The notes beneath the pieces were generated by a model that searched no databases, was not told the origin of the DNA, and was given only the letters and a program-made list of their open reading frames with translations. Below are positions 3,370 to 21,600 of a stretch of DNA of 64,000 bases, in pieces. This stretch comes from a virus (lineage: Duplodnaviria; Heunggongvirae; Uroviricota; Caudoviricetes): the IMG/VR virus record IMGVR_UViG_2654587772_000002; one strand, 5' to 3'. The position numbers and the translations under genes were made by a program. The number at the start of each line of letters is the position of its first letter. The stretch's first letter is position 1.

Positions 3370-3372
3370 ATA

Positions 3373-3389: not shown

Positions 3390-3569
3390 TGTTTTTTAAC
3401 TGCCGATGTTACATTGAGCCTGACCTCTTGCGCCTTGAGGCATTTTCGGTTTATGCTTATCAGGCACCTCAGTAAAACGGGTGCCGGGATTGAGACCCCG
3501 GATAATGCAAAAGGCGACACAGACGCCAAAAGCGTCTTTTTTTGTGTCATGCCATCGCACAGCCATACG

Positions 3570-3700: not shown

Positions 3701-3728
3701 CTTAAATTAGCAAAAGGAGGCTGCCATT

Positions 3729-3950
3729 GTGGCTACTATCCCTACCCCAGCTCATCCTGAATTTATCTGGCGCTTTTACTCCTGCCAAAAACGTCACTAT
3801 CACTTCGTTATTGCACCGACAGAAGATGAGGCACGTTCTCAGCTTCCGGATGCTCCCTGTATTTTCTCTGCCCGCTTTTCTACCGATTCGCGCAATTCTC
3901 TCAGTTACTGGTGCCTCCCTGTTAACGCTTCTGCTCAGGAGGGACTATGA
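3729..3950 (+). CDS. Icd-like small protein (73 aa), translationally coupled to ant
   Basis: GTG start 10 nt after strong SD AAAGGAGG; stop overlaps ant ATG (ATGA); size matches P1 icd. Confidence 0.4.
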   Translation: MATIPTPAHPEFIWRFYSCQKRHYHFVIAPTEDEARSQLPDAPCIFSARFSTDSRNSLSYWCLPVNASAQEGL

Positions 3951-5049: not shown

Positions 5050-5056
5050 TGGAAGA

Positions 5057-5078
5057 ATGCCCGGTTGATGCCGGGCAT
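5057..5078. terminator. Bidirectional hairpin terminator between ant (+) and c1 (-)
   Basis: 8-bp perfect stem ATGCCCGG/CCGGGCAT with 6-nt loop between convergent genes. Confidence 0.5.
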
Positions 5079-5081
5079 AAT

Positions 5082-5933: not shown

Positions 5934-6043
5934 TGATCCTCCTCCAGAATTGACATGGTCAATAACGCCCGGCTGAGAAAACCGGTCATTACTGACCTAT
6001 ATTATAGAGGGATCAAACAAAAATAATAGATTTATTAGTGCAT

Positions 6044-6253
6044 TTATTGTGAGTCCAACTGGTTAGTTGCCATGAGATATTCGATTGTGTCAGTGAGGTC
6101 ATCCAGGTCGTCTTGGGTGATGCGGTACTCCTGATTGGATATCTTTGAGTAGTGTTCAGCAATGGCGCGGGCAGCGTCGGTTTCGGCAGGGTCTACAGAT
6201 AAAGCGTTAGAGCAATGTCTAACGTCGTCGATGGTTGGTTGAATGAAAGCCAT
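6044..6253 (-). CDS. coi: C1 inactivator Coi (69 aa)
   Basis: 69-aa ORF upstream of c1 in same orientation, operator sites upstream. Confidence 0.8.
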   Translation of the reverse strand: MAFIQPTIDDVRHCSNALSVDPAETDAARAIAEHYSKISNQEYRITQDDLDDLTDTIEYLMATNQLDSQ

Positions 6254-6492
6254 AATTATGCCTCACTGTATTGACAACACAGAGCCTGAAGCTCTGACCT
6301 ACTGTTTCACCCATGATCCATGCTGGGGTAATCTAACAACATTGCGCTGTGTGTAAGATGAGCAATGCATAGCTGTAATGCCGTTGTATAAGGTTTCCCT
6401 GTTTGCTCATTTCCTTCTGAGCCGCTCTACAACGCTGAAGACACATTAAATAGTGAATCCAAAGTCGTATTACGAAACGGCGGCAAAACTAT

Positions 6493-6509: not shown

Positions 6510-6574
6510 GTCAAACAACTATGAAAAACAATCCAGTTTTTGGCTGGTGGAGTGGGATTTTTCTCTCAAAATTT

Positions 6575-6590
6575 ATTGCTCTAATAATTC
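6575..6590 (+). promoter_or_regulatory. C1 operator (ATTGCTCTAATAATTC) in coi-c1 promoter region
   Basis: Consensus match read in sequence. Confidence 0.6.
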
Positions 6591-6634
6591 TTGATTTTTA
6601 TGCGCAGCTGGACGTAAACTCCTCTTCAGACCTA

Positions 6635-6668
6635 ATAACTTCGTATAGCATACATTATACGAAGTTAT
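6635..6668. other. loxP: loxP site-specific recombination site (ATAACTTCGTATA-GCATACAT-TATACGAAGTTAT)
   Basis: Exact 34-bp loxP sequence present. Confidence 0.98.
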
Positions 6669-6857
6669 ATTAAGGGTTATTGAATATGATCAATTTACCT
6701 GTAAATCCATACAGTTCAATACCTTGGCAGGTCAAATAGTGATCACTTGATCATTTGATCAAGGTTGCGCTACGTAAAATCTGTGAAAAATTGGCGGTGT
6801 TAGTCCTACAGATTTCGCGTAGCGCACTTAGCACCACCAATCAATCAGAGGTGAAAA

Positions 6858-7079
6858 ATGGGATATTCAACTGCTAAAGTGTCCACTCATCTTGAGCTTG
6901 AGAAAAACCGTGGTTACTGGCGGGCAAAAGGGTTTGATCGTGATAGTTGCCAACTGTCATTATCGCGCGGTGAAGAAAAAATAGAACGCACGCGCGGTCG
7001 CTGGCGTTTCTATGACGAGAACCATAAACAGGTAAAGGCAGAGCCGATCCTGTACACTTTACTTAAAACCATTATCTGA
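6858..7079 (+). CDS. Hypothetical small protein (73 aa) between loxP and cre
   Basis: ORF with SD GAGGTG 7 nt upstream of ATG; no recognisable domain. Confidence 0.3.
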   Translation: MGYSTAKVSTHLELEKNRGYWRAKGFDRDSCQLSLSRGEEKIERTRGRWRFYDENHKQVKAEPILYTLLKTII

Positions 7080-7086
7080 GTGTTAA

Positions 7087-8118
7087 ATGTCCAATTTACT
7101 GACCGTACACCAAAATTTGCCTGCATTACCGGTCGATGCAACGAGTGATGAGGTTCGCAAGAATCTGATGGACATGTTCAGGGATCGCCAGGCGTTTTCT
7201 GAGCATACTTGGAAAATGCTTCTGTCCGTTTGCCGGTCGTGGGCGGCATGGTGCAAGTTGAATAACCGGAAGTGGTTTCCCGCAGAACCTGAAGATGTTC
7301 GCGATTATCTTCTATATCTTCAGGCGCGCGGTCTGGCAGTGAAAACTATCCAGCAACATTTGGGCCAGCTAAATATGCTTCATCGTCGGTCCGGGCTGCC
7401 ACGACCAAGTGACAGCAATGCTGTTTCACTGGTCATGCGACGGATCCGAAAAGAAAACGTTGATGCCGGTGAGCGTGCAAAACAGGCGCTGGCGTTCGAA
7501 CGCACTGATTTCGACCAGGTTCGTTCACTCATGGAAAATAGCGATCGCTGCCAGGATATACGTAATCTGGCATTTCTGGGGATTGCTTATAACACCCTGT
7601 TACGTATAGCCGAAATTTCCAGGATCAGAGTTAAAGATATCTCACGTACTGACGGTGGGAGAATGTTAATCCATATTGGCAGAACGAAAACGCTGGTTAG
7701 CACCGCTGGTGTAGAGAAGGCACTTAGTCTGGGGGTAACTAAACTGGTTGAGCGATGGATTTCTGTCTCTGGTGTGGCTGATGATCCGAATAACTACTTG
7801 TTTTGCCGTGTCAGAAAAAATGGTGTTGCCGCGCCATCTGCCACCAGCCAGCTATCAACTCGCGCCCTGGAAGGGATTTTTGAAGCAACTCACCGATTGA
7901 TTTACGGGGCTAAGGATGACTCTGGCCAGAGGTACCTGGCCTGGTCTGGACACAGTGCCCGTGTCGGAGCCGCGCGAGATATGGCCCGCGCCGGAGTTTC
8001 AATACCGGAGATCATGCAAGCTGGTGGCTGGACCAACGTAAATATTGTCATGAACTATATCCGTAACCTGGATAGTGAAACAGGGGCAATGGTGCGCCTG
8101 CTGGAAGATGGCGATTAG
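7087..8118 (+). CDS. cre: Cre tyrosine recombinase (343 aa)
   Basis: Translation begins MSNLLTVHQNLPALPVDATSDEVRKNLMDMFRDRQAFSEHTWKMLLSVCRSWAAWCKLNNRKWFPAEPEDVRDYLLYLQARGLAVKTIQQHLGQLNMLHRRSGLPRPSDSNAVSLVMRRIRKENVDAGERAKQALAFERTDFDQVRSLMENSDRCQDIRNLAFLGIAYNTLLRIAEISRIRVKDISRTDGGRMLIHIGRTKTLVSTAGVEKALSLGVTKLVERWISVSGVADDPNNYLFCRVRKNGVAAPSATSQLSTRALEGIFEATHRLIYGAKDDSGQRYLAWSGHSARVGAARDMARAGVSIPEIMQAGGWTNVNIVMNYIRNLDSETGAMVRLLEDGD, i.e. Cre; loxP ~420 bp upstream. Confidence 0.98.
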   Translation: MSNLLTVHQNLPALPVDATSDEVRKNLMDMFRDRQAFSEHTWKMLLSVCRSWAAWCKLNNRKWFPAEPEDVRDYLLYLQARGLAVKTIQQHLGQLNMLHRRSGLPRPSDSNAVSLVMRRIRKENVDAGERAKQALAFERTDFDQVRSLMENSDRCQDIRNLAFLGIAYNTLLRIAEISRIRVKDISRTDGGRMLIHIGRTKTLVSTAGVEKALSLGVTKLVERWISVSGVADDPNNYLFCRVRKNGVAAPSATSQLSTRALEGIFEATHRLIYGAKDDSGQRYLAWSGHSARVGAARDMARAGVSIPEIMQAGGWTNVNIVMNYIRNLDSETGAMVRLLEDGD

Positions 8119-8168
8119 CCATTAACGCGTAAATGATTGTTCTAATTCTTTGATATTTATGGTGACAT

Positions 8169-8480
8169 ATGAGAAAGGATTTCAACATCGACGGAAAATA
8201 TGTAGTGCTGTCTGTAAGCACTAATATTCAGTCGCCAGCCGTCATTGTCACTGTAAAGCTGAGCGATAGAATGCCTGATATTGACTCAATATCCGTTGCG
8301 TTCCCTGTCAAAAGTATGCGTGGTGCTGAACATTTCGTGATGAATGCCACCGAGGAAGAAGCACGGCGCGGTTTTGCTAAAGTAGTGTCTGACTTTGGCG
8401 AACTCTTGGATAAGGTTAACAATGTCCTTTCAATCAGTTCAGCAAGGTCCAAAGCGTTAACAGCTTCCATGATGAAATAA
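8169..8480 (+). CDS. Hypothetical protein (103 aa) downstream of cre (position of P1 cra)
   Basis: ORF only; no domain recognised. Confidence 0.35.
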   Translation: MRKDFNIDGKYVVLSVSTNIQSPAVIVTVKLSDRMPDIDSISVAFPVKSMRGAEHFVMNATEEEARRGFAKVVSDFGELLDKVNNVLSISSARSKALTASMMK

Positions 8481-8624: not shown

Positions 8625-8828
8625 TTATAATTGAGCCGTGGCGTTAGTCAACTACGAAGACGTGGCCATTACCTACTTAACCAGTTCCGCCAGGGCAGCA
8701 GAGTAGGTTTCATCTCGGATGTACCATGCCTGCATGTTTTCCAGAGAAGCCCGCGAGGTTCCCGGACAGGACTCTGCCATTGCGATAGATTAAATGCAAT
8801 AACCTAAAAGCGATAACGTGGTGGAAAA

Positions 8829-9468
8829 ATGTTCATCAGAGCTTATTTAAGGGCATCAACGGAAGATCAGTTTGCCGATCGGGCAAAAGAGATGCTGGGG
8901 CAGTTTGTTCAGGAGCGGGGACATAAAATAGCCAGTTACTACCGGGAGAACATAAGCGGTACAAAACTCGACCGCCGGAACTGGGACGCTTACTGATGGA
9001 CAGCCACCGCAATGATATTTTACTGGTCGAGCAAATTGACCGCCTGACCCGTCTGAGTAACAGTGACTGGATTACGCTGAAAAAGCAGATAGAACAACAC
9101 GAACTGCGGATTGTCGCCTGGATGTATCCACCTCATGGCAGGCGCTGTCAGATAAAGACCCTTCGCAGGCTGACCCAATCACCCGCGCCGTGATAACCGC
9201 CATCAATAACATGCTTATCGACCTGATGGCCGCGATGTCGCATAAGGACTGGCTGAGCCGTCGCCAACGGCAACAACAGGGAATTGAACGGGCTCATACG
9301 CTGGGTAAATACCGGGGATAACAGGCCGATCAGGAACGGCATCAGAAAGTCCTGTACTACTGGCAGGTCAAGAAACTAAGTATCCATGAAACGGCAGATG
9401 CGACAGGGTACAGTCCTTCACAGATATGCCGCATTCAAGCCCTTTATAGAGAGCCTGAATCGGAATAA
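8829..9468 (+). pseudogene. Serine recombinase (resolvase/invertase family) remnant with at least two frame disruptions
   Basis: N-terminal MFIRAYLRASTEDQ motif (catalytic Ser region), then ...DILLVEQIDRLTRL... and a C-terminal HTH-like part in other frames; interrupted by stops. Confidence 0.6.
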
Positions 9469-9574
9469 AAAGTAGCCCAGGCGTTAATGGATTACCTTTC
9501 CAGGCTAAGCTCATTGCTCCTGTCAGATACGCAGCCCTGCCTGTAATAATACAGACTGGGCAATGTGTTGCCAC

Positions 9575-9904
9575 TCAGGCTGACAACTGTCGGAGGATAT
9601 CCGCTGTATTATAATGAGCCCGTTTTTCTATATATTTCCCGTCTTTCAGAGTGATCATAAACATCAGAGAAAAGCGCACTTTCCTGCCGCTGGCAGGATG
9701 CCCAAGGAATTCACGGGTCTGCACGCCTTCAAAGATAAGATAGCAGGCGACTTTATCGTCTCTGGCAAAGATTTCGTGGATACGCATTGTAAATCCCGGA
9801 AAAGCATCCATATGGCCTTTTTCCTGTACGATAAACTGCTCACTGTTCAGCGGTGTATCCACCTGAGAATAGAATTTAAAATCCGGATGGCAGAGGTTTT
9901 TCAC
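9575..9904 (-). CDS. NTF2-like/SnoaL-like small protein; upstream in-frame ATG (9976) is separated from the body by a TAA at 9965-9967
   Basis: Translation ...ENIKTVKKFYRLIEENKYDEVKNLCHPDF... resembles SnoaL-like fold proteins; in-frame stop read directly. Confidence 0.45.
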   Translation of the reverse strand: MKNLCHPDFKFYSQVDTPLNSEQFIVQEKGHMDAFPGFTMRIHEIFARDDKVACYLIFEGVQTREFLGHPASGRKVRFSLMFMITLKDGKYIEKRAHYNTADILRQLSA

Positions 9905-9984
9905 CTCATCATATTTATTTTCTTCAATCAGACGATAAAACTTTTTAACCGTTTTGATATTTTCTTAAACAGACATATTGCACC

Positions 9985-10974
9985 TCATTTTTCAGTTTCT
10001 TTACCTGCCGGAATATTGCCTTCCGGCGTTCCGTTAAATGTTTTTCGCCATTCACTGGGACTGACTCCCATCCGCTGCCGGAATATCTGCCGGAAAGTAA
10101 TGGTGGACTGAAAGCCTGCCAGTTCGGCAACCCGCTCCACTGCAATATCTGTACTTTCCAGCAGTTCCTGACTCCGCCGGAGACGCTCTGTGGTGATCCA
10201 CTCCCAGACCGTCATTCCTGTGGCCGAATGAAAATGGCGTGTAAGCGTTCTTCGGCTCATGGAGGCTAAATGGGCCAGAGTGTCAATATCATGTGGTAAT
10301 CCCAGATTTGCGGACAGGTATTCCAGCAGCTGGTTTATGCGGTTATCGGACGTACTTTTGGGAATAAGCAGTTGCCGGTACTGTGCCTGTCCGCCTTCCC
10401 GGTAAGGAGGAGCAACCATCCGGCGGGCTATTTGATTAGCCGTATATCTGCCCAGGCGTTGCCGGATCACATGGAGACAACAGTCCAGTGCTGCGGCTGT
10501 ACCGGCTGAGGTGATAATCCGCTCGTCCTCAACATAAAGCACGTTCACGTCCAGATGAACCGCCGGGAAAAGCATCTGGAAATCCCGTTCAGCCTCCCAG
10601 TGCGTGGCCGCCCGTTTACCATCCAGCAGACCGGTGTAAGCCAGAACAAAACTCCCCAGGCACAGGCCCACCACCTGAGCTCCATTTTTCCAGGCTGCAA
10701 CCAGGGCACTGAGCAGAGTTTCAGAAGGCCTTTCATGGATGTGTTTCCAGAAAGGAATAATAACGATATCGGCCTCTGCCAGTGCATCAAGCCCGTATTC
10801 TGCCCTCATCGCCGTACCTTCAGCAGACCAGATAAGCCCGGGCTCTTCCGCACATACCCGGCGGCTGAAGAGGGCCTTCCCTTCCAGTATCTCCCCGAAC
10901 AGGATTAATGGAACGGAGACATGAAATGTACTGAACCCTTCGGTGATCACTATAGCGACAGTGATGGTGGACAT
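9985..10974 (-). CDS. GlxA-family transcriptional regulator (DJ-1/PfpI N-domain + AraC-type HTH C-domain), 329 aa
   Basis: Domain architecture recognised in translation (C-terminal ...RRTLTRHFHSATGMTVWEWITTERLRRSQELLESTDIAVERVAELAGFQSTITFRQIFRQRMGVSPSEWRK). Confidence 0.75.
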   Translation of the reverse strand: MSTITVAIVITEGFSTFHVSVPLILFGEILEGKALFSRRVCAEEPGLIWSAEGTAMRAEYGLDALAEADIVIIPFWKHIHERPSETLLSALVAAWKNGAQVVGLCLGSFVLAYTGLLDGKRAATHWEAERDFQMLFPAVHLDVNVLYVEDERIITSAGTAAALDCCLHVIRQRLGRYTANQIARRMVAPPYREGGQAQYRQLLIPKSTSDNRINQLLEYLSANLGLPHDIDTLAHLASMSRRTLTRHFHSATGMTVWEWITTERLRRSQELLESTDIAVERVAELAGFQSTITFRQIFRQRMGVSPSEWRKTFNGTPEGNIPAGKETEK

Positions 10975-10989
10975 GCCATGGCCTCCGGG

Positions 10990-11766
10990 TTAAATCGTAA
11001 CTGATTCACCATCAGCAGGAGCGACAACTGACGCCTGGATCTGGTTATCGCGGGCATATTCCAGCAGTTCCTGACGGGTCAGCAGACAGTGGTTTACGGC
11101 CTCCATGTGCGTTGCCACAATCAGTGCCTCTGGTACGATACGATGGGCTTTCAGGACATCTTCCCTGCCGAAAATAATGGGGCCGAATCCGAGAACATGC
11201 GCCCAGCCCGTATTCATAATAACGACGCCAGGATTGAACCGACGTAAATTATCCTCTACAGCCTTGATCCAGATGGTATCCCCAACCAGATAGAGCGTTT
11301 TTTCGGACGGATGCTGGAAGACCACCCCACAGGCATCCCCAAGAATTGCTGCGAGTTGCGGGTTAGCATAGGCTTCGTCCGAACCATGCTGACAAACGGT
11401 TTTAATAAGTGAAATTTCGCCAAATGTGCTTTTGTCAGACAGAATAACAAGGTTGCTGAAGCCCTGGGAACGCAGGATCTTTTCATCATGTTCATTCTGA
11501 ACATAAATCAGTTTATCTTTCGGGATGTGCGCAACAGCCGCTTCATCCCAGTGGTCAGGGTGTGTGTGGGTGACAATAATGGCATCCACATCCAGCAGTA
11601 CATCAAGGTCAAAAGGCAGCTCAGTCATCGGGATGCGGATATCTGACCGGGCCGTTCCTTCGAATCCCGGATAGGCTTCTTTTTTCGCAAGCATCGGATC
11701 GACAAGAAATTTTTTACCAGCGTAAGAAATGAGTTGTGTGGCGTTACGTACCTGGATGATCTTCAT
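10990..11766 (-). CDS. MBL-fold metallo-hydrolase (258 aa) with HTHPDH metal-binding motif
   Basis: HxHxDH motif and overall MBL-like pattern in translation. Confidence 0.7.
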   Translation of the reverse strand: MKIIQVRNATQLISYAGKKFLVDPMLAKKEAYPGFEGTARSDIRIPMTELPFDLDVLLDVDAIIVTHTHPDHWDEAAVAHIPKDKLIYVQNEHDEKILRSQGFSNLVILSDKSTFGEISLIKTVCQHGSDEAYANPQLAAILGDACGVVFQHPSEKTLYLVGDTIWIKAVEDNLRRFNPGVVIMNTGWAHVLGFGPIIFGREDVLKAHRIVPEALIVATHMEAVNHCLLTRQELLEYARDNQIQASVVAPADGESVTI

Positions 11767-11981
11767 TTTAGCAAGTCCTGTATTGGTTAATAACCATCAG
11801 AGCCATATCATGATGGCCTAATGTGATAATTATGATTAAATCAGGCCTGCCTGCCACTGAAATAATGCCATATTTGGATGATATCAGGCCATTCTTCTGG
11901 CTCTCAGGTTTCAGGAATATGTCTGCTGAAAGCGGGTACAGATCTGACGCATTGAAGGGAAGTATCGTCCTTTAAGGCTTA

Positions 11982-12371
11982 TTGATGTCAGCCAGTACAA
12001 AAAATCATCTTAACGTACAATATCTTCCGTTTCCCAAACGGAGCCCACCAACGACGGAGGAACGGCGCATCGCCAATGCTCTTGGCGCTCTCCCCTGCAT
12101 TGCCTGCTATATGCCTGGAGTAATATCTAATGAGGTGTCTCTGAACCATATCGCCGGTCGTACCGCGCCGGGTTGTCACAAAAAGCAATTGCCACTTTGT
12201 AGATGGCACCACCAGCATGCAGCACCGGCTGAAGTAAGAGAAAAATACCCCTGGCTGGTCCCTGTTCATGCCGATGGTGTGGTTGGAGGCAAGAAAGAAT
12301 TCACCTTGCTGAACAAGTCAGAGATGGAGTTGCTGGCTGACGCCTATGAAATGGCAAACGTCATGCACTAA
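11982..12371 (+). CDS. HNH-type nuclease-like protein, possibly Ref (recombination enhancement) homolog lacking the N-terminal region
   Basis: Cys/His cluster (CIACYMPG...SLNHIAG...CHKK...CRWHHQH); position before mat as P1 ref; shorter than P1 Ref as I recall it. Confidence 0.4.
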   Translation: MMSASTKNHLNVQYLPFPKRSPPTTEERRIANALGALPCIACYMPGVISNEVSLNHIAGRTAPGCHKKQLPLCRWHHQHAAPAEVREKYPWLVPVHADGVVGGKKEFTLLNKSEMELLADAYEMANVMH

Positions 12372-12560
12372 TAAATATATTATTTTTAATCTTAAATGAT
12401 TGACAACTGACAAGTGACTTGAGTCAGAATCATCACACGCCCGGTACGGATGGATCCCTTTTCAAATATTCCATGGACGGCACAGTCTGAGTACCGGGCG
12501 CTACCTTCTGTTGTATTGCTAAGCCGCCGCTGGTGGCTTTTCTTTTTTATAGGGGGCGAT

Positions 12561-13205
12561 ATGGATAAGAAAATATGCGTTGTTTCGATGAGCGTCGGTA
12601 AACCGGCGTCAATGACTGCTGCATGGATCAACAACGAGCTGATAATGGCTGAGCGGACCAGCTACCCTGAACGCCGCCGCGATATGGAACTCCAGCTGCT
12701 GCGCGAATTGCGAGAAAAAGAGGAAAAGGGTTTTATCGTGCTGGTGGAAGAGGAAAACAGCTTTATTACCGGTCGAGTTGGCCAGCGTGTAAGGTTGCGC
12801 GATCCCTTCATGAACGGCAGGCCGGTACTAATTGAAGCAATGCAGATTTACAAGGAGCTGGAACGCCAGAAAGCGATCAAGTTACCGCGCAAGGAATCCG
12901 GCAAATACATCCTCCACCAAAGCATCTTCGATTCCGAACACGATAAAAAAGGCGATGAGTTTTTCAACATCAACTGGAGCGAAATAACGACAGAGCATGT
13001 TCTGACGTTGTTATGCTGCTTCGCAACAGAATACAACAACGTGGTAAGCGCAGACTACATCAGGACAATGACAGACACCGTTACTAAACAAGACAACGAA
13101 TATTCACCATATGAGCCATTTGTAAATATGATAAAAGCATTTTATCGGATGGAGCTCGCTAAAGTTCCTCAAGGTAAATTAACAGGTAAGGATAACATCT
13201 TTTAA
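12561..13205 (+). CDS. Mat-like particle maturation protein (position-based); ORF track extends to 12450 but ATG 12561 has strong SD AGGGGG
   Basis: Synteny with P1 mat; SD-ATG spacing. Confidence 0.45.
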   Translation: MDKKICVVSMSVGKPASMTAAWINNELIMAERTSYPERRRDMELQLLRELREKEEKGFIVLVEEENSFITGRVGQRVRLRDPFMNGRPVLIEAMQIYKELERQKAIKLPRKESGKYILHQSIFDSEHDKKGDEFFNINWSEITTEHVLTLLCCFATEYNNVVSADYIRTMTDTVTKQDNEYSPYEPFVNMIKAFYRMELAKVPQGKLTGKDNIF

Positions 13206-13258
13206 GCACAGTAATGAGGTGCTTAGATGTTAATATCAATATCCTAACTCTCTGCATC

Positions 13259-13948
13259 TCATAAATCTGATAGCCACTTACTATCTATGGACTCAATCTC
13301 CGTCAGCGGAATTGATGGGAAAAAATATCCCTGAGCGCCCCATAGCCCTATTCCTTTTGATAACTTATGACAATCAATGTTTTCGACGCCTTCAGCGATG
13401 ATATTCGGACATAACTTTTTTAAATTGCTAATAATGACATCAAAATGAGGCTTAATCATATGCTCTTGAAAAAATGACTTATCAAGTTTTATTGCATGGT
13501 ATTTATTTTTAATTAATGCTTTCATGGTGGCGTTACCACTTCCAAAATCATCAAGCCAAACATAGTCTGTCAAAGTCAGGAGAAAGGGTATAACGTAATC
13601 CTCATCGCTTAAATCAGGGTAGTTTTCTGATATCTCAAGAACTATAAATTTATTGTTTTTAATTAACTCTTGAGTTTGTTTATTACTGTATATATATATA
13701 CATGTATCATAATCTACATTAATAGAACATAGTATATTATGGCGTTCAAAAAAACACTTGTATTTCATTATTGTGTTAAGTTGTGATTTAAGTAAATTAA
13801 TCTTCATCTTATTGGTAAACATACCCAATACTCTTTGAGTAGGAAGAGCGACACCATCTTTGGAGCGAAATCTGCTTAACACTTCTACTGCAATCAACTT
13901 GTTCGTGCTCGTAGAAATGATTGGTTCTGCAATGTAGATAACTTCCAT
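13259..13948 (-). CDS. Stand-alone EAL-domain protein (229 aa), YdiV/PdeH-like, catalytic motifs apparently conserved
   Basis: Motifs EVL, EISEN, DDFGSG, KLDKSF, EGVEN, QGYFF in EAL order; strong SD GAGGGTGG upstream; very AT-rich. Confidence 0.7.
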   Translation of the reverse strand: MEVIYIAEPIISTSTNKLIAVEVLSRFRSKDGVALPTQRVLGMFTNKMKINLLKSQLNTIMKYKCFFERHNILCSINVDYDTCIYIYSNKQTQELIKNNKFIVLEISENYPDLSDEDYVIPFLLTLTDYVWLDDFGSGNATMKALIKNKYHAIKLDKSFFQEHMIKPHFDVIISNLKKLCPNIIAEGVENIDCHKLSKGIGLWGAQGYFFPSIPLTEIESIDSKWLSDL

Positions 13949-14184
13949 ATCCCCACCCTCAAGTTTTAAATTGCTTGATTTTGCTCAGATAACGAGCCCC
14001 CTATATTTACAAGAGTTACACTCTACTTTTGTAGATTAAATGTCAATTTATTTGTTTGTGATAATATTGAAAAATATCAATTAAAACAATCAAAAAATGT
14101 GACATAAATCAATAATTTTATTTTTACACAACTTCTTGATTTCTGAGCCTAGCTATCTCTATTCTTATTCAAAGCCTCTTTAGA

Positions 14185-14919
14185 ATGGTGGTGGCCATGT
14201 CAGCAGTTTGTTACTTCATACTCATAAAGAAACCTATAAGCTTTCAATTTCTTAAGGATTTCTTAATATTAAATTATGGTGATGTGTTGTTGCTTAAGCA
14301 TTCTGAGCATGAATGCTTAAAAATCTATTCAGACAAATATATAGAATTCGAACTCAATGATAATACCGTAAGAAACTATTTATCATGCAACAACAACCAT
14401 GGAAACCAATCGCTGGATAAGTGTCCGCATTTGCTAAAAAAGTCTTTTGCCTATCCTGATTTATTAATCAGGATGATCGATAATATAAGCGATCAAAATC
14501 ATATCCATTCTGATTTTAGGGAGGCAGTAACTTTTTCATTACTCTCAATTTTTAATGATGTTGATAACTTTAGAGCATTTCTTACGTCTGGTATGCCCAC
14601 TTTCTCAGGGAAAGTGCGCAGCATATTTCTTTCAGATGTATCTAAACACTGGAAACTAAGAGACCTAACCGATTATCTCTACATGAGTGAAAGCTTAATA
14701 AAGAAAAAACTATTATTGGAAAACACCTCCTTCAGTAAGTTATTACTTGATACACGGATGGCTTTTGCTATTAAATTACTAAAGCAAAATCATCCAGTCA
14801 AACAAGTATCAGAAAGCTGTGGCTTTAGTAGTACATCGTACTTTGTGTGCCTGTTCAGGCAATATTATAATTGCACGCCACGTGAATATGCAAAACATCA
14901 ATTATTATCTGGAAAATAA
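14185..14919 (+). CDS. AraC-family transcriptional regulator, AppY/EnvY/GadX-like (244 aa)
   Basis: C-terminal HTH region WKLRDLTDYLYMSESLIKKKLLLENTSFSKLLLDTRMAFAIKLLKQ...GFSSTSYFVCLFRQYYNCTPREY closely resembles E. coli AppY. Confidence 0.75.
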   Translation: MVVAMSAVCYFILIKKPISFQFLKDFLILNYGDVLLLKHSEHECLKIYSDKYIEFELNDNTVRNYLSCNNNHGNQSLDKCPHLLKKSFAYPDLLIRMIDNISDQNHIHSDFREAVTFSLLSIFNDVDNFRAFLTSGMPTFSGKVRSIFLSDVSKHWKLRDLTDYLYMSESLIKKKLLLENTSFSKLLLDTRMAFAIKLLKQNHPVKQVSESCGFSSTSYFVCLFRQYYNCTPREYAKHQLLSGK

Positions 14920-14957
14920 GATGCATTTATCTCCCAGATAATATTGTAATATTAAAC

Positions 14958-15206
14958 TCAGTCAGCATTTAGTAGCAGAGCATTATCTATGATGATCTGC
15001 TCCCATTCTTCGAATGCCCGGTCACGGACGCCCTGGGGAACACTGTTTGTTTTGAAATCAACGACTGTCCGCCATTTCCCGTCCGGACGGTACATGCGCA
15101 GAGCTTTACTTCCCCCTTCCCTACGCACCTCAACGTTATGCTTGTCAGCAAACTCTTGTAATGCTCGTAGCGTCCCATGCTTTACTGTGTAGTATCGCTT
15201 TTTCAA
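14958..15206 (-). CDS. lxc: Lxc/Bof-like C1 co-repressor (82 aa)
   Basis: 82-aa ORF immediately downstream of ulx-darB as in P1; assigned by size and synteny. Confidence 0.55.
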   Translation of the reverse strand: MKKRYYTVKHGTLRALQEFADKHNVEVRREGGSKALRMYRPDGKWRTVVDFKTNSVPQGVRDRAFEEWEQIIIDNALLLNAD

Positions 15207-15643
15207 GTTTTCTCTCCAGCCTGTGCCAAGGCTTCAACTTCCAAATCGTAAGACTCAAACTCATAGTCCTGGTCGTCAACTTCTTCAGGCACTGGCAGTA
15301 AATGCCAGGCTGAGTATATCTGACCATTATCAAAACGCTCCTGGCTGTAGAGCGTCGCAGCTATGAGCGTCAGCGCCGGGCGGTCATAACGGTAAATTTT
15401 GCGAACGTCACGGTCAACGAGACGACCGAAATTACCATAACCGCGCTCCAGTAATAATTTTTTAATTTCCGGCCAGTATGGGCCATAGCTGCGGTACAGG
15501 CGGGGATTTTTCAGTAATCGCCCGCGTAGCCCTGACAGGAAGAAATCAACGTATTCGTCTTCTGTCTTTCCTAACAACGCTGTACGGAGTACCGCCTCAA
15601 GATATGTTTTATTCGGTTTTATTGTATCAGATAGTGTGGCCAT
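15203..15643 (-). CDS. Ulx-like protein (146 aa), darB-associated
   Basis: Coupled (4-nt overlap) to lxc, downstream of darB. Confidence 0.5.
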   Translation of the reverse strand: MATLSDTIKPNKTYLEAVLRTALLGKTEDEYVDFFLSGLRGRLLKNPRLYRSYGPYWPEIKKLLLERGYGNFGRLVDRDVRKIYRYDRPALTLIAATLYSQERFDNGQIYSAWHLLPVPEEVDDQDYEFESYDLEVEALAQAGEKT

Positions 15644-15676
15644 ATTATGCGACGCCCGGCGAACCGGGCGCTCCTG

Positions 15677-18600
15677 TTATGCGTATTGTTGGATGACGGC
15701 CAGAACGTCCGCCACGTTGTGTTTTGTCTCGATAATCCACCAGTTACCCGGGAAATCGCTGTTCTTCGCCTTCGCTGGCAGCCAGCGAGCGCCGAATTTC
15801 GCCTTGATTGCGTCTTTCGCACGGAAAAGAACGCCTTTCATGCCTGAGGCTTCCTGAAGCCCAAATACCTCGCCAGCGGCGAATTTTGGTGCGTACATCA
15901 TCTTCAGGTCGGCGGTGGATACGCGATAATTCAGACCTAGAGACTGAGCTATGCTGGTGGCATCACCCTGTATTGATGATAACTCTTCTTGTTTCTCGTT
16001 TCTGGCGGCAATCTCTTCCTCCGTGATGTTGCCAAGGGCCAGGTTTATCCGATCAGCGTCGGCCTGTTTCTCTTCATCGGTGCGCCCGGCAAGAACCGTG
16101 TTAATTCTCTGCAATATCTCCACATGATTCTTGCGCATGCTGAGCAATTCCGGCGTAACCTCGTTAAGATCCACCAGCCCAAGGATGGCAAGGTCGGAAA
16201 ACATTGATACCAGGTTGTAGGTCATGCGATAGCTGAGTTGACCATAGGCTGATGGCAACTTCACCGCATCCATTTGATAGGCATCCATAAATTTAGAGCC
16301 GTCGTTTACGACATCCGCTATTGCAGGTGTGATTTTCCCTGTGGTGGCGGCCTCCCTGATTGCTGTTACCCACGATTGAGTCAGCGCGGCGACTGCATGA
16401 TTCAGATTGGCTTCCCGTTCTGCTGCGATGCGCGCGCTTGCTGCGTCCATTGCCTGCTTGATCTCGGCTTTATTGCTGTAAATGCCAATGGTGCCAAACT
16501 GTGCTGTGGTGATCTCATAATCTGACGCCCGGAACTCATTGGTACCGAAAATGGCATTGGTGACTTCAAGTTCAGAATCCCCGTTACGAGTAGCCCCCTG
16601 GCTTGTTTTTTCCGGCATTCTGGCGATCGCATCCGCTATTTTCTCCTGAATTGCTTCAGGGGATAGCGTATCTCCGTATGACGCGATTACATCGCCATAA
16701 TTGGAGCCAAACAATTCAACCAGGAATGTTTCTGCCGAACGGATCTGGCGGTTATTCCCTTCCGACATCATACCAAGCACCCATTTTGCAATTGACGACT
16801 TCAGCGCGACGTCACGGCGATCCGGGTAAACCGCATGCTTCAGTGGGTCCGTATAGGTACCAACAAAATCAATGCTATAGCCTGACTCTGTAGTCTGAAC
16901 GCCGTATGAGTCAGTGATTTTGATCATGCCGCGCTGCTGGAAACGGTAGAAATCGTCACAGGAAATGATGTCGTTAATCCCGGCGATGGAGACGCCGCCA
17001 CTGATTTTCTGCATAACAGCATCTTCATCGGGAGTTACATCAACCTGTTTATCCAGCGTCTTCACATCCCAGTTACCCGATTTGGTACCTTTGAAGGTAA
17101 AGATAATCTCCACGTCTGCGCGCAGGCTGTCGAAGTCCAGCGACTTAATGCGAACGATATCACCGGCACAATCGTAGTATTGGCCTACACGCCATGAGCG
17201 ATCGCCGATAATAAGGAACTCACTCGCATGGTTAACCAGGTCAGGATCAACATCCAGAATGCCTTTATTTATTGCATCCTCCACCAGCGGGCGCAGGCGT
17301 TTGATATCCGTCGCGGCCTTCTGAGTACGGTTCAATAATTTCTCATAGCGGGAGATGGCTTGAGAGATATTAGCCTTGCGCTGAATGGCGCTTTTCAACG
17401 ACGCGCGATACTGTGCTAACAACGTACGGTCTGTGTGATGGACGCTACCCCAGCGGGCTTTCCAGTCTGCGTTATCAGCTGCTTTGGCCATTACCGCCTG
17501 TTTGAATTTGGCGACGTCGGCGGTGGTCTTTTCAAGTTCCGCTTTGCTTCGCTCTAATTCAGCGGTAAGCACCTCCACATCCTCACCAGCTGCGTGCTGC
17601 GCCTTGATGTAGTTCTGAAGGTCGATAGTAGCCTGTTCTTTCTGGCGAGCGCGTTGCGCGGCTTTCGCCTTATCCATTTGAACCTGCATCATTGCCAGAC
17701 GTTCGCCATCATCCTTAGCGGTATACATCTGCATTTCGATCATATCGTTGGCGTCGGCGTTCTCCATTTCTGACTTATCTGAACGGAGGATATCGGAGAT
17801 CCAACCTGCTTTACGCTTCAGCGTCTTCAGTCGGTATTCATCGAAAGAACCCTTGCCGCAGTAGTAGTGAACGCGAACGCTTGCACGGTTGGAACCAACT
17901 CGGGCACCGCGACCGTTACGCTGTGCGATACTGGCTGGTGTCCATGGCAACGTCAGATGATGGATGTCAGTCGTTCCTCGATGCAGGTTGATACCCACCT
18001 CTGCCTTTTTGTTGCAGATGATGATCGGAGTCCGGCCCTCCTGGAAGTCGGCTGCAATCTTTTCCAGACCGCCCAACGACATTTCATTTTGCTGCGCGAT
18101 ATAGGCGTCATACAGAGCTATTTGCTCGTTGTATTTCGCTATCTGTGCATCTGTTGGTTCATCCGGTAACTCTTTCGGCGGTTTAACCGCTTTCAGTTTC
18201 TTACCGGTTTTACCTGCCTCGGCAACCGTCTGAGCATTCAGGATCCCCACCTTTGAAGGTTCAAGGTTAAGAGCATTGCAGATAATGCGCTTGAGCTTCT
18301 GGTGTTGCGTTTTTTCATCGGTGAAGATGATTTGCTTACCTTCTGGGAAAAACTCCTTCAGCGTGGCAATCAGCTTCGCGTATTTGGGCGTAACGGGGTG
18401 AGTTACGGTCTGTTCGTCAATGCCAAACTTGGCCAGGCGCTTATTCACTTCCTGCTCAAATGCTTCCGGTACCTGCAACTGAATAAACTCGCCCTTATCT
18501 ATCAGGGAGTATTGCGATTGCTGCGTGATTGAATCATCACTGTCGTCGTCTTCGCTGGTGGCTTGTTTGGGCAAACTGTCCGCCAGCTGCTGCACCGCAT

Positions 18601-21600
18601 CGGCGTACTCCGGCAGGAAACGATAGGTGATCCGGCGATAGTACAGGTCCATGTCAGTACATACGCGGTCCATATCCCTGATTATTGAGAAGATCGGACG
18701 GGCTTTCTCGTGCTCAATCACGCCGTCTTCATTGACCGAGGTCATTACGCCATTGTTGGCTTTGGCCGCCGCTTCCGCCTGCTGACGCAATTCTTCATAC
18801 GCCGCCAGTTGTTCTTCAGTAAGTGGTGCATCCTGCTGGTGTTCGTCCAGCTCCGGGATCTCCACGGTATCCTTAACGTCTTCCGCCGTTTTAAGCGTTA
18901 CCCAGCGATGGAATATACCGCGCAGCGCATCAAGGTTTTCAAAGCCCACCAGCGCCATTTTTTCTTCAACTTCACCGCTGATTTTCTGTACCGTTTCCAG
19001 CCTGGTCTTGCCGAAGAATTTAACGAAGTCATCAGGACCGTAGATCCCCATCTTCTGCCAGTATTCCTTCGGCAGAACATGAGAAAGCATGTTGTATGCA
19101 TCGATCGGGGTGTTAACGACTGGCGTTGCAGTCAGGAGAACCGGCCCGCGCCCGCCATTCTTTTTCATCAGGTACGCGTTTTTAATTGCCATATCTCGCG
19201 CCGATTGCGCCACCGCGCTGGTGGGCAGATAGGCCAGCTGTGACGCTTCGCGACCATTTTTATAGCTATTGCGGTAGTTGTGGCCTTCGTCAGCAATCAC
19301 GCTGTCGAAGCCCATATCCTCAAAGTACGGATACTTCTCTGCTTTTTCGGTACCGGTATCTGAATACTCCGACAATACCCGGCGACGCGCCGCCTCTTTG
19401 CGATGGGAATCGGAGTCCATTGCGCTGGCCACACGCCTGGCAGCAACGAAGTCATAAAGCATGTCTTGTGCATGCTCATCTACGGTGTCATCACGTAGCG
19501 GAATGCGGGCGTATTGTTCTTTGGTAAACACGACTGCACGGTAGTTTGAGTGCGGGATCGCGTTCATCCGCGCCGTGATAGTGGCTTCATCTGCCAGTTT
19601 AAGGGCATCGCGCATAACGGGAGTGCCATCTGCACCAACGACAGGTTTACCGTTCTCATCGAGCACCGGCACCTGGCGAATCTGATCGCCATCCATCAGC
19701 ACATCAAGACCGACGAACAGGTAGTTACTGAATGCCTCTTCACTCAGGAACTCTTTTGCTTCGTAATACCAGTTTTCCAGCACTGCTTTAGGCACTACAT
19801 AAGCAGTACGGGTGGAGCGACCGTTCTCATAGTTGAACGCCTCAAGCGCCAGCGCGGTCGTCGTTTTACCCAGCCCGGTGCCGAAGCCCAGGATGCCGCG
19901 CCCATCTTCGGACAGTCGGCGCACCTCGCTATTCTGGTAATCAAATGGCTGGCGCTTACCGCTTAATCCCTTCAACCCAAGCGGATCGCCAGAGTGTTCA
20001 TACGGGATATTGCTATTGAACACATCGTTGTATTTGGCAACCAACTCATCGTAGCGATCGTGCGTCTTGATCCACTTATTGAACTGGTCCTCAAGCAGTG
20101 CCATCTGCTCGCGGTAGCCGTTCGCCGTCGCGCTATCTTTGCCACCGATACGCGCACCATTGAGATACTTTTCCAGCTGTGCCGGGAACCCGGTCGCGTT
20201 TTCACCTGATTTACGGTCCCACTCGTAGCGGATCTCGCCTGTTTCTTTATCCTTGCGCTGGACGACACCGTATCGGTGCCCTACGAACAGGCCATCACCA
20301 CCGTGATAGGTGTCAGAAACCATTTCGTCGCCTTCCAGCTGCACTGACTGCACATAGCGCAGATCCGGATAGCCGTTTTCCTGCAAAAATTCCAGAATGA
20401 CGGAACGGTCGAACCAACGGCTATTGAGCTTAAACCGGATATTCTCTGCTGGCGTCTTGATGCGCTTCTCTTCGATCGCTGCCAGCTGATTAAGGACGTT
20501 GTTCTTTACTGGACCGTCGGGGAGCGTGGCGAGGAATTCCTGTTTTGGAGCCACTATCTCGTTAATGTCGCCGCTGGTGGCGCGGGCAAACGGAACAATC
20601 CCGCCATACGGTGAAACCGCAATACCAGGGGTGCTGGCCAATAAATTAAGCAACTCGTCATCACTGGCTGGCAGTTCGCCGGTAAACGCAAGGCGGAAAT
20701 CATCGAGCTGGATTGGATCGCGGGTAAGATCGCTATAGAGATAACGCAGGGTGTCCTGATAGCTGTTGGAGTCATAACTGGCGCTGGAGTCATGCGTAAC
20801 CAGCTTTCCTGTCAGCTCGTCTGAAATAGAGCCATCCAGCTTAATCGCACCACGGAAAGCAAACCAGGCGCGCGCACCGCTCCCCGACAATTTCGCTATA
20901 GGACCGCGACCAGGATTACCAAAGCGGTCAATCTCTGCCTGCAAACGGGATACCAGAGAAAGGCGCTGCTGTTCGATTTGTTCAGCACTATGCCCGGCGG
21001 CCTTCATATCCTGATATTCAATTAACATCCGGCCAATCATCGCCCCGCGATACAAGCGTTCACGGTATTTTTCAGGCTGGCTGTTAATCCAGTCCACCAG
21101 CTGCACCATATCGTCGCTGATTGATGTGGTGTACTTATCGCGGACATTTGCCATCTGGGTAAATGTCATGCCGAGACGGCCTTCTGTTGTAGTCAGGTTA
21201 CGCTGAAGAGCCTCCCAGCTATCCGCGCCATAACTGGCAGCATCGATCTTAAGTTCCTTCCCGGCATCAGCTTCAATCCAGCGACCACCAGCATATTTTT
21301 GCCATACGCCATTAATCAGGCGCATTTCCCCTTCACCAACAACGTCTGCGGTCGGTGACGGTTCAGCCATATCGAGCAAAGACCAGTCGATACGGCTTTC
21401 GAAACGATGAATCAGCTTCGCTTTAAGAGCCTGGTTATCAATCTGACCGTCGGCACGAACCTCAATACGCCCCTGGAAGCCCTTTTCCTGGGTGCCATGA
21501 ACAAACCGGCGGCCATCCTTTTCAAACCACTTGCCAGAAATAAACGTTGGCCAAAGCACATTTGCCGATTCAAGAGTGCTTTCATCCACCAGGGGGATTT

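Follow-up and report, generated by a model that had tools for sequence, protein, structure and literature searches.

P1-like phage-plasmids, which spread resistance genes, are widespread in Escherichia coli, Salmonella and their relatives. The slot that holds res and mod in P1, called RD-1 or 'region 1', has been documented as a variable region of these elements (PMC6906374, PMC9603915). A 2019 paper described the RD-1 of plasmid pJIE250-3 in its Table 1 as '2 orfs including putative transcriptional regulator' (PMC6906374). The RD-1 content of pJIE250-3 (6,556-8,293) is the cassette that we describe here, in the same slot and with the same joints. The slot and the two ORFs, including a putative regulator, were all that the RD-1 papers reported. 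We add the EAL domain, its intact catalytic residues, the homologues on IncF plasmids and the frequency of the cassette, which those papers do not mention. In short, the P1 res/mod slot can hold a two-gene cargo that is conserved, common and shared with virulence plasmids.

Several described proteins resemble the EAL protein of this cargo. PdeH (YhjH) is likewise a stand-alone single-domain EAL protein of similar size with the same catalytic residues (E, N, ExxE, DDFG, K, EGVE, QG). However, PdeH falls in a separate clade of our tree and belongs to the flagellar regulon, whereas the EAL gene here lies on mobile elements. The closest solved structures, by sequence and by fold, are YdiV (RflP) and STM1697, which are about 230 aa long and carry GNAT/GNST in the loop that follows the DDFG position, as here. 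Neither of these proteins binds or cleaves c-di-GMP (PMC5622320). They lack the DD pair, the EGVE glutamate and other catalytic residues, but the EAL protein here keeps all of them. The SfaY-type EAL genes found at the ends of fimbrial operons in ExPEC are also stand-alone, adhesin-linked and carried on accessory DNA, but they are distant in sequence and lack a paired AraC gene. They are thought to couple adhesion to motility.

The regulator also has known relatives. YdeO and AppY are acid-stress regulators of the same AraC subfamily, but neither is paired with an EAL gene. AppY comes from prophage DLP12 and reprograms acid resistance, biofilm formation and motility in E. coli (PMC10057817); it thus sets a precedent for the rewiring of a host by a prophage regulator. 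Rns and CsvR (CfaD), the fimbrial activators of ETEC, are the best solved-structure matches for the regulator, at low identity, but the P1-like copies of the regulator have no accompanying fimbrial operon.

The cassette in the mat-lxc slot

The window, that is, the whole stretch of DNA analysed, comprises 64,000 nucleotides of IMG/VR record IMGVR_UViG_2654587772_000002. It has the following features in and around the slot.

12450..13205, + strand: mat (maturation control); its 5' 621 bp are P1 backbone, its final 135 bp are not
13071..13205, + strand: alternative 3' end of mat (last 45 codons), the left boundary of the variable segment
13259..13948, - strand: EAL gene, 229 aa, predicted active c-di-GMP phosphodiesterase (Pfam EAL, catalytic residues)
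13949..14196, no strand: divergent intergenic region, 248 bp, with a conserved block at about 14090-14165
14197..14919, + strand: AraC/XylS-family regulator of the YdeO/AppY/GadX/Rns group, 240 aa (Pfam HTH_18 and HTH_AraC); the ORF reaches upstream to 14185
14903..14943, no strand: 17-nt inverted repeat forming a terminator-like hairpin; it overlaps the stop codon of the regulator and lies where the AraC and lxc genes converge
14958..15206, - strand: lxc (bof), P1 backbone flank (BLASTN, P1 annotation)

The P1 reference (NC_005856) has the order mat (2716-3468), res, mod, lxc (9750-9998). The first-pass annotation of this DNA placed a divergent, AT-rich gene pair in the res/mod slot, and the P1 map and BLASTN bear this out: 13206-14957 is exactly the gap between the stop of mat (13205) and the stop of lxc (14958). 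The ORF list, the GC profile and the Pfam matches likewise agree that both ORFs are real, divergent and AT-rich. The GC content is 0.27-0.36 over 13200-14999 and about 0.5 in the flanks.

The non-P1 DNA defined by BLASTN is slightly wider than this gap; it covers 13071-14961 and stands in for P1 3337-9753. To its left, 12040-13070 is 96.3% identical to P1 2306-3336 (BLASTN); to its right, 14962-17208 is 98.0% identical to P1 9754-12000. The joints lie at 13070/13071 and at 14961/14962, the latter 4 bp within the 3' end of lxc. As the non-P1 DNA starts at 13071, the final 135 bp of mat belong to the variable segment. This mat 3' end (13071-13205) had no match in P1 by BLASTN and is 95-100% identical among cassette carriers. 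When P1-like plasmids with other cargo were aligned, the alignment also ended at the left joint, and the query coverage of 47-48% corresponds to the two flanks. The cassette has the marks of P1-like RD-1 (res-mod) cargo, with mat and lxc flanks homologous to those of P1 and joints common to its carriers.

We found the cassette in the mat-lxc slot of about 17% of the P1-like plasmids in PLSDB (122/706) and in about 2.7% of complete E. coli genomes (146/5,426). A conserved chromosomal pair of known function can be ruled out, because plasmids account for 149 of the 155 places in the E. coli genomes and the chromosomal copy in ST2747 sits within a P1-like element. Carriers include phage vB_EcoM-Ro157c2YLVW and a laboratory 'P1' stock (OP279344), and a scan of IMG/VR gave six P1-like contigs with the EAL gene. 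The same scan gave another 22 EAL genes that are only distantly related (28-30% identity). Most of these sit where a prophage contig ends, and they probably belong to flanking host DNA. A literature search for EAL domains in P1-like elements or phage-plasmids, or for prophage-encoded EAL proteins, found nothing relevant. The statement that no such P1-family module had been described does not stand, since the cassette is common in P1-like elements and was already listed.

The pair had also been read as carried instead of res/mod. Its occupancy of the slot is correct, but it is not a strict alternative to res/mod: the E. albertii plasmid pEA18_2 has both, in the order mat-EAL-AraC-res-mod-lxc, with the cassette beside res/mod. 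This plasmid rules out strict replacement. The co-occurrence touches one of the findings that the first-pass annotation had named as telling against its reading, namely res/mod elsewhere in homologous P1-like genomes and the pair as an ordinary conserved P1 gene.

Both genes of the cassette are real, intact and under strong purifying selection. Pairwise dN/dS was 0.11-0.35 for the EAL gene and 0.04-0.25 for the AraC gene, mostly 0.1-0.2, and values of about 0.1-0.2 hold for both genes in comparisons that include the IncF copies with dS >1. The full-length protein clusters contain hundreds to about a thousand sequences (P0007, 1,040; P0033, 916), against a few truncated ones. Chance ORFs in AT-rich DNA are ruled out by the Pfam matches and by dN/dS of 0.04-0.35 over many synonymous changes. 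Broken copies do occur. Phage Ro157c2YLVW has a frameshift in the EAL gene, the E. fergusonii copy of that gene is truncated, several plasmids have IS5 family insertions inside the cassette, and the OP279344 copy has a 7-aa deletion in the first helix-turn-helix of the regulator. The occasional broken copies and insertions, together with the very low GC, could suggest that the cassette is decaying, H-NS-silenced junk DNA without function. We give this almost no credence, as dN/dS is low in many pairs, full-length clusters reach 1,040 members against few truncated ones, and the catalytic residues are invariant.

The EAL protein and its active site

Profile searches placed both proteins in the families that had been proposed, EAL and AraC HTH, with scores above the Pfam cut-offs. 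The EAL protein matched Pfam EAL (PF00563) over profile positions 14-233 of 236 with 65.6 bits (E=5.5e-18), where the cut-off is 31.3. The catalytic set of EAL domains, in RocR numbering, consists of the E of the EAL motif, R, N, ExxE, DD, K, the E of EGVE, and Q. When the protein was aligned to PdeH and YahA (PdeL), catalytic R26 was present together with E22, N77, E105, E108, D133, D134, K154, E186 and Q206, and the latter nine do not vary among 21 relatives, which are 25-100% identical. The match to RocR itself (query 131-217, RocR 293-382) is in line with this set but spans only the C-terminal residues, D133 to Q206. The first-pass annotation had claimed that all catalytic signature residues are present, unlike in YdiV, and alignment to PdeH, YahA, YdiV and STM1697 confirmed this. 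YdiV and STM1697 read LGNLG/LGDLG and GGID/GGQE at the catalytic motifs; the site here is not degenerate in this manner. Thus, the EAL protein most likely hydrolyses c-di-GMP, as predicted from its active-site residues.

Loop 6 of canonical EAL domains reads DFG(T/A)GYSS. The loop here, DDFGSGNATMKAL (DDFGSGNAT), does not follow this pattern, and the loop of active PdeH, DDFGTGMANFSAL (GTGMAN), likewise departs from it. The best NCBIfam match of the EAL protein was the PdeH model NF008617 (3.2e-27), with 95.4 bits against an equivalog cut-off of 190, and the protein is 26% identical to PdeH of K-12. This cut-off and this identity rule out a PdeH orthologue.

The AlphaFold2 (AF2) model of the EAL protein has an EAL fold with a pLDDT of 93.2. 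Its best fold matches were YdiV (TM 0.88, rmsd 1.9) and STM1697 (TM 0.84), and active YahA gave TM 0.77-0.79. By sequence, the best matches among solved structures were STM1697 (1.5e-29) and YdiV (6e-22), with PdeL at 5e-9. Two observations count against the predicted phosphodiesterase role: a score of 95 bits where the PdeH cut-off is 190, and nearest folds that are catalytically dead FlhD-binders.

With STM1697 and YdiV as the top matches by both sequence and fold, the EAL protein could mainly be an anti-FlhD4C2 factor that binds FlhD and turns flagellar genes off, while its catalysis would be of minor importance or missing; lysogens would then have lower motility and less exposed flagellin. 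STM1697 contacts FlhD through V115, L116, L136, V147, F160, K167, L172, L173, K175, H176 and Y180 (PMC5622320). At these positions F159 and K166 are identical here and Y118, F135, I146, V171, I172 and L179 are hydrophobic equivalents; the central residues of the interface are kept or conservatively changed (F160 to F159, K167 to K166, L172 to V171, L173 to I172, V147 to I146). However, the polar contacts K175 and H176 have become S174 and N175, V115 has become D117, and close relatives have E-I, D-T and E-T at the equivalents of L172/L173. F159 is a general EAL residue and is therefore uninformative on FlhD binding. Additionally, selection for FlhD binding alone leaves unexplained why the catalytic residues are intact and invariant, and both known FlhD-binders have lost theirs. 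The neighbour-joining tree also argues against this alternative: it grouped the EAL protein with YdiV and STM1697 in only 56 of 200 bootstraps, and on this support a sister relationship to the two proteins was rejected. An FlhD-directed role as the main function seems unlikely to us.

A second proposal joins both activities. The EAL protein may stand between a phosphodiesterase and an anti-FlhDC factor and perform both functions, with a compact YdiV-like fold, partly conserved FlhD contacts and full catalysis. With its AraC partner it could form a phage-plasmid 'lifestyle or exclusion switch', which would set motility, matrix and c-di-GMP-dependent phage receptors in about one-sixth of P1-like lysogens. 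Taken as a whole, this joint claim is speculative and we hold it to be doubtful.

The regulator and the IncF relatives of the pair

The AraC ORF (14185-14919, + strand, 244 aa) scored 50.3 bits with HTH_18 against a cut-off of 33.6 and 37.1 bits with HTH_AraC against 26.6, and it has the C-terminal double helix-turn-helix of AraC/XylS regulators. The start of the regulator is likely at 14197 (240 aa), because the RefSeq annotation, the YdeO alignment and the IncF homologues all begin there. The regulator is 35% identical to YdeO over 233 aa, its full length (E=3e-46), and it matched the YdeO model NF007407 over the full length (2e-44) with 152.1 bits against a cut-off of 348. BLASTP aligned AppY at 40% identity with residues 112-235 only, the C-terminal half, and left the N-terminal half unaligned; a lysine equivalent to AppY K170 is shared. 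Thus, the first description of the regulator as having an AppY-like HTH holds for the C-terminal 125 aa, but the likeness is not full length, and the regulator is closer to YdeO and to Rns/CsvR. The curated cut-off and the alignment coverage rule out a YdeO or AppY orthologue.

Among solved structures, CsvR and Rns came closest to the regulator; the matches are at about 1e-20 and cover residues 42-232. The position of Rns R75, which we take to be the decanoate-binding residue, is a glutamate here, and on this ground we tentatively reject Rns-like fatty-acid sensing.

IncF plasmids carry the same divergent pair, with an EAL protein of 226 aa (67% identity) and an AraC protein of 234 aa (68%). 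This copy of the cassette is about 70% identical and adjoins fimbrial operons, 1.8 kb from a chaperone-usher operon. The nucleotide homology is confined to 13250-14898 of the window, which is the two genes and the spacer. P1-type and IncF-type copies share a conserved block in the spacer, at about 14090-14165, even though the genes on either side have reached saturation at their synonymous sites (dS >1.2). The same divergent arrangement, the confined homology and the conserved spacer block all indicate that the two genes travel together between P1-like elements and IncF plasmids.

These neighbours bring in another explanation. The pair may be a displaced adhesin-regulation locus from virulence plasmids, carried by P1 as a passenger that acts in trans on fimbriae and has no phage-specific role; the AraC protein would be a fimbrial activator of the Rns/CsvR type, and the EAL protein would link adhesion with motility, a role also proposed for SfaY-type genes. 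The resemblance of the regulator to the two ETEC activators and the IncF pair near a chaperone-usher operon are consistent with this. Additionally, a regulator of 59% identity adjoins a K88-type fimbrial subunit gene on an IncF plasmid, a pap-like operon has EAL relatives of 46-49% identity (P0017) at its end, and a distant EAL relative of 25% identity (P0030) is named SfaY. But in 122 P1-like plasmids the pair is intact, evolves under purifying selection and has no fimbrial genes next to it, and the presumed decanoate contact of Rns is a glutamate here. We think that a passenger of this kind is rather unlikely. It overlaps the explanation that we prefer, and the main difference lies in the targets of the regulator.

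A promoter scan of the spacer (13949-14196) found nothing above the shuffled expectation. The conserved block contains weak hexamers that resemble -35 and -10 elements (TTGATT, 18 nt, TATTCT) and a TGTGA-N6-TCAAT element; we give these no weight, because the spacing is not canonical for a CRP site. A search of 13071-14961 for the P1 C1 operator, allowing up to 3 mismatches, found none, and there are 8 operators elsewhere in the window; control of the cassette by the C1 repressor was rejected on this result. The inverted repeat at 14903-14943 is 88% complementary. It is the one terminator-like site, and shuffled sequences gave a mean of 1.2, so there is no excess.

A model for the cassette in lysogens

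On balance we lean towards a model in which the pair is a two-gene accessory ('moron') module in the RD-1 res-mod hot-spot of P1-like elements, expressed in lysogens and lowering host c-di-GMP. We propose that the compact stand-alone EAL enzyme most likely cleaves c-di-GMP and that the AT-rich module most likely has its own activator in the divergent YdeO/Rns-type regulator. Like the prophage-borne AppY, this regulator probably also acts on targets in the host or on plasmids. Once expressed by the resident prophage-plasmid, the module would reduce c-di-GMP in the host, and lysogens would become more motile and make less curli, cellulose and matrix. The activity of the enzyme, control of the EAL gene by the regulator, lysogenic expression and the direction of the phenotype are steps that we infer. 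The first-pass proposal that the pair could rewire motility, biofilm or stress responses of the host is plausible. The model is supported by a complete and invariant catalytic set, the confident AF2 prediction of an EAL fold and dN/dS of about 0.1-0.2. The joint movement of the two genes, the documented variability of the slot, the lack of a C1 operator in the cassette and the AppY precedent also speak for it. Further points tell against it: the non-canonical loop 6, a spacer with no above-chance promoter, some broken EAL copies and the helix-turn-helix deletion in OP279344.

Another reading is that the module might guard the lysogen from other phages or counter host defence. For instance, c-di-GMP depletion and a change in transcription could block phages with c-di-GMP-dependent receptors, such as N4, or the enzyme could remove a cyclic-dinucleotide immune signal. 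In other P1-like plasmids the slot often holds cargo of the defence type, namely res/mod, SIR2+DUF4145, PIN, RelA/SpoT, GNAT or YaaC, which is compatible with a defence role. N4 infection requires c-di-GMP, and PdeL, which is both an EAL enzyme and a transcription factor, needs its catalytic activity to protect E. coli (PMC8669472). An EAL enzyme with a separate regulator is loosely analogous. However, PADLOC-DB 2.0 gave no credible match: one hit at E=0.0089 had no passing stretch, and the regulator had none. On this result a known defence system was rejected and the counter-defence idea of the first-pass annotation found no support. EAL domains are to our knowledge specific for c-di-GMP, and the CBASS signals of E. 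coli are other nucleotides. The same pair beside IncF fimbrial operons also points to lifestyle regulation rather than immunity. We regard a defence role as improbable. Matches in PHROGs were to families of unknown function only.

If the enzyme is active, acquisition of the element would alter c-di-GMP in the host, and hence motility and biofilm matrix. Susceptibility to phages with c-di-GMP-dependent receptors might change as well. If the model of a c-di-GMP-lowering module is true, the cassette is a lysogenic-conversion trait masked by annotation as 'hypothetical protein' or 'EAL domain-containing protein'. In at least one laboratory 'P1' stock, OP279344, the cassette stands in place of res/mod, and therefore experiments with that stock are not equivalent to those with reference P1.

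The mat-lxc slot and its cargo

The P1 map given in the first-pass annotation, with res and mod between mat and lxc, is correct: the reference genome (NC_005856) has mat at 2716-3468, res at 3544-6456, an IS5-interrupted mod, and lxc at 9750-9998. In the window, this gap holds a divergent pair consisting of an EAL gene and an AraC-family regulator gene. The arrangement was confirmed by the ORF list, by Pfam profile matches and by a dip in GC content to 0.27-0.36 across the pair, compared with about 0.5 on either side.

12450-13205, plus strand: mat-like ORF, left neighbour of the pair
13259-13948, minus strand: EAL gene, 229-aa ORF (Pfam EAL, 5.5e-18, 65.6 bits against a cut-off of 31.3)
14185-14919, plus strand: AraC-family regulator ORF, 244 aa (Pfam HTH_18 and HTH_AraC)
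14958-15206, minus strand: lxc, right neighbour of the pair
15203-15643, minus strand: ulx, beyond lxc
15677-22444, minus strand: darB, beyond ulx

The regulator is likely to start at 14197, giving a predicted product of 240 aa, because the RefSeq annotation, the alignment with YdeO and the IncF homologues agree on this position. When the window was compared with P1 by BLASTN, the left joint fell at 13070/13071 (P1 3336/3337) and the right joint at 14961/14962 (P1 9753/9754), with flanks 96-98% identical to P1. Thus, the foreign segment is 1,891 bp long, reaching from the final 45 codons of mat to a point 4 bp into lxc. Homology is also lost at about 13070 in P1-like plasmids with other cargo, which suggests that every cassette comes with a Mat C-terminus of its own (here 13071-13205).

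The pair had been thought to stand in place of res/mod. The slot is indeed the same, but E. albertii plasmid pEA18_2 (9054-16147) has the order mat, EAL, AraC, res, mod, lxc and so combines the cassette with type III res/mod, which rules out a strict alternative. In pEA18_2, homology to the window continues past the cassette for about 97 bp of lxc 3' sequence and then stops; a complete lxc follows mod. The duplicate lxc end looks like a recombination scar such as the stacking of two cassettes would leave. The slot is additive as well as modular. EcoP1-type res/mod was found in 108 plasmids, part of them not P1-like, and the slot of other P1-like plasmids (PLSDB matches H83-H105) holds GNAT, YaaC, PIN, RelA/SpoT, DUF2971, SIR2+DUF4145 and KilAC-type antirepressor genes, cargo of a defence-like or toxin-like character.

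The idea of an exclusion or counter-defence role for the pair builds on this defence-rich cargo and on PdeL (YahA), an EAL enzyme and transcription factor in one, whose catalytic activity is needed for the protection it gives E. coli against phage N4 (PMC8669472); protection by PdeH was only limited in the same study (PMC8669472). However, PADLOC returned no credible match, and we regard such a role as improbable, at about one chance in ten.

Near matches to the 1.75-kb interval occur in 149 PLSDB plasmids and in 146 of 5,426 complete E. coli genomes, where 149 of the 155 places are plasmid-borne. A query running from the truncated ref through mat, the cassette and lxc to ulx matched 706 plasmids, 122 of them with the complete arrangement. 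Among phages, the interval matches the Punavirus vB_EcoM-Ro157c2YLVW at 97.4% and, at 87.4%, GenBank OP279344 ('Escherichia phage P1 isolate del res del mod'), the P1 stock of two Argonaute studies. The cassette was therefore not as new to the P1 family as had been supposed: it is common in P1-like plasmids, and published work already regards res-mod as a variable part of P1-like elements, named RD-1 or 'region 1' (PMC6906374, PMC9603915). In pJIE250-3, the coordinates of the cassette match exactly equal those given for RD-1 (PMC6906374). What stands of the claim is that our literature search found no paper naming the EAL domain or testing the function of the cassette. As a system, the module is uncharacterised but of no new kind: a predicted EAL phosphodiesterase and an AraC regulator, both of known types, travel on mobile elements as cargo of an established hot-spot. 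The module deserves attention because it is frequent and well conserved, and because an existing laboratory P1 stock already carries it.

The P1-like element of E. coli ST2747 chromosome assemblies is essentially the same as the window, and its cassette is 100% identical. Compared with ST2747 record CP007393, the window has two extra segments, 6543-8145 (lox-cra-cre) and 18934-20870 (an internal part of darB, which is annotated as frameshifted in CP007393); the remainder is 99.97-100% identical. A further stretch of about 3.4 kb between c8 and the truncated ref (8673-12039) has no P1 counterpart, and P1 2027-2305 is missing there. The stretch corresponds to the 'five additional orfs between c8 and mat' of pJIE250-3 and ST2747 (PMC6906374), and holds an ester cyclase gene and a decayed resolvase gene, together with:

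9985-10974: GlxA-type AraC/DJ-1 regulator
10990-11766: MBL-fold hydrolase

The EAL protein

All catalytic signature residues had been described as apparently present, and alignment with PdeH, YahA, YdiV and STM1697 bears this out. Every catalytic position aligns with PdeH and YahA:

EVLSR: E22, R26
INVD: N77
LEISEN: E105, E108
LDDFGSG: D133, D134
IKLDKS: K154
AEGVEN: E186
AQGY: Q206

Nine columns (E22, N77, E105, E108, D133, D134, K154, E186 and Q206) are invariant among 21 relatives of 25-100% identity. At the equivalent motifs, YdiV and STM1697 carry LGNLG/LGDLG and GGID/GGQE in place of the LDDFGSG and AEGVEN of our protein.

The best sequence matches among solved structures were STM1697 (1.5e-29) and YdiV/CdgR (6e-22), followed by PdeL/YahA (5e-9). 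The best NCBIfam model was the PdeH equivalog, at 95 bits well under its 190-bit cut-off, and K-12 PdeH is 26% identical. A confident AlphaFold2 model built from the 21-relative alignment (pLDDT 93.2, pTM 0.89) gave YdiV (TM 0.88, rmsd 1.9 A) and STM1697 (TM 0.84) as best Foldseek matches, with active EAL domains such as YahA at TM 0.77-0.79; no PdeH structure was among the sequence or Foldseek matches to solved structures. In an NJ tree, the P1, IncF and pap-linked EAL proteins formed a robust clade (200/200 bootstraps), whose link to YdiV and STM1697 was weak (56/200). The modelled fold is intermediate between active phosphodiesterases and degenerate anti-FlhDC factors.

These similarities raise the possibility that the protein binds FlhD as YdiV and STM1697 do. 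We projected the FlhD interface of STM1697 (PMC5622320) onto the sequence alignment with solved structures. The central hydrophobics and a single lysine are either retained or changed conservatively (F159, K166, V171, I172, I146), and polar contacts are changed (K175 to S174, H176 to N175; also V115 to D117). At the positions of L172/L173 in the STM1697 interface, close relatives show E-I, D-T or E-T. The interface residues speak neither for nor against FlhD binding; overall, we consider a role as a YdiV/STM1697-like FlhD-binder unlikely, at roughly one chance in seven.

Salmonella phage SJ1 (OQ595196.1, 11314-12006) has a 91% identical copy of the EAL gene without its partner, adjoining IS1. 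It is annotated as 'ydiV: putative anti-FlhC(2)FlhD(4) factor', a poor fit given that the window copy has its catalytic residues intact. A distant relative (28-30% identity) occurs in 22 IMG/VR viral contigs (L036-L057), mostly of about 50-55 kb and mostly at the contig end; these genes probably belong to host DNA flanking the called prophages, not to phage cargo.

The regulator and a model for the module

The label 'AppY-like' is approximate. AppY is 40% identical over the C-terminal 125 aa only (BLASTP), whereas the full-length match is to YdeO (NCBIfam, 2e-44, 152 bits against a cut-off of 348; K-12 YdeO, 35% identity over 233 aa by BLASTP). GadX, HilD and HilC models came next. Among solved structures, CsvR and Rns were best (about 1e-20, residues 42-232), followed by the GadX DNA-binding domain and ToxT. 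Proteins of the YdeO/AppY/GadX/Rns group typically activate AT-rich, H-NS-silenced genes, and by analogy the regulator may be an activator.

We propose that the pair is a cargo module in which an AraC-type activator would regulate the neighbouring EAL gene. The module would be expressed in the lysogen, and the EAL enzyme would hydrolyse c-di-GMP, so that host c-di-GMP falls. We give this model slightly better than even chances. AppY is a precedent for a prophage-borne regulator of the same type that rewires its host, as it alters acid resistance, biofilm formation and motility (PMC10057817). Mutation of AppY K170 abolishes DNA binding (PMC10057817), and the equivalent lysine is conserved in the window regulator.

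The P1 and IncF versions share a conserved spacer block at about 14090-14165, which fits a putative shared regulatory site. A promoter scan of the spacer gave nothing above chance, and no P1 C1 operator was found in the cassette.

The OP279344 regulator (4449-5150) has an in-frame 7-aa deletion, MSESLIKKKLLLEN to MSEILEN. It is probably unable to bind DNA, because the first HTH recognition helix is lost, and with it the lysine equivalent to AppY K170.

Relatives, selection and recombination

The same divergent pair occurs in IncFII-type plasmids (EAL, 226 aa, 67-69%; AraC, 234 aa, 68%), and nucleotide homology between the window and IncF versions is limited to the two genes and their spacer (13250-14898, 70-74%). 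One IncFII-type copy adjoins a ParE/RelB pair and repA, and a chaperone-usher fimbrial operon is located 1.8 kb from another. A distant lone EAL gene sits at the end of a pap-like operon, near SPATE and hly genes, and a distant lone regulator adjoins a K88-type subunit gene. Both genes are also present as a decayed copy in other plasmids. The fimbrial neighbours would suit a displaced fimbrial-regulation module acting in trans, to which we assign roughly one chance in seven.

Estimates of dN/dS (Nei-Gojobori, including pairs with dS > 1) ranged from 0.11 to 0.35 for the EAL gene and from 0.04 to 0.25 for the AraC gene. Both genes are intact and evolve under purifying selection, and replicons of different types have kept the two together as a unit. 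That the cassette is non-functional DNA is very hard to credit.

Across the P1-like carriers, identity is 95-100% in the flanks (with the alternative mat end counted in), 86-96% in the EAL gene, 86-98.5% in the regulator gene and 76-98% in the spacer. An O111:H8 plasmid is a mosaic, with its EAL gene near the pJIE250-3 allele (dS 0.06) and its AraC gene near the window allele (dS 0.07), which implies recombination within the cassette. Together with the divergence of the alleles, this mosaic indicates that old alleles circulate and recombine in a nearly uniform backbone.

The spacer exists in two types, mutually just 76% identical. Individual copies have been damaged: the EAL gene of Ro157c2YLVW (1725-2414) is frameshifted ahead of EGVEN, that of an E. 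fergusonii carrier (1554-1928) is truncated to 124 aa, and IS5 family elements lie inside the cassette in three plasmids (H10, H15 and H81).
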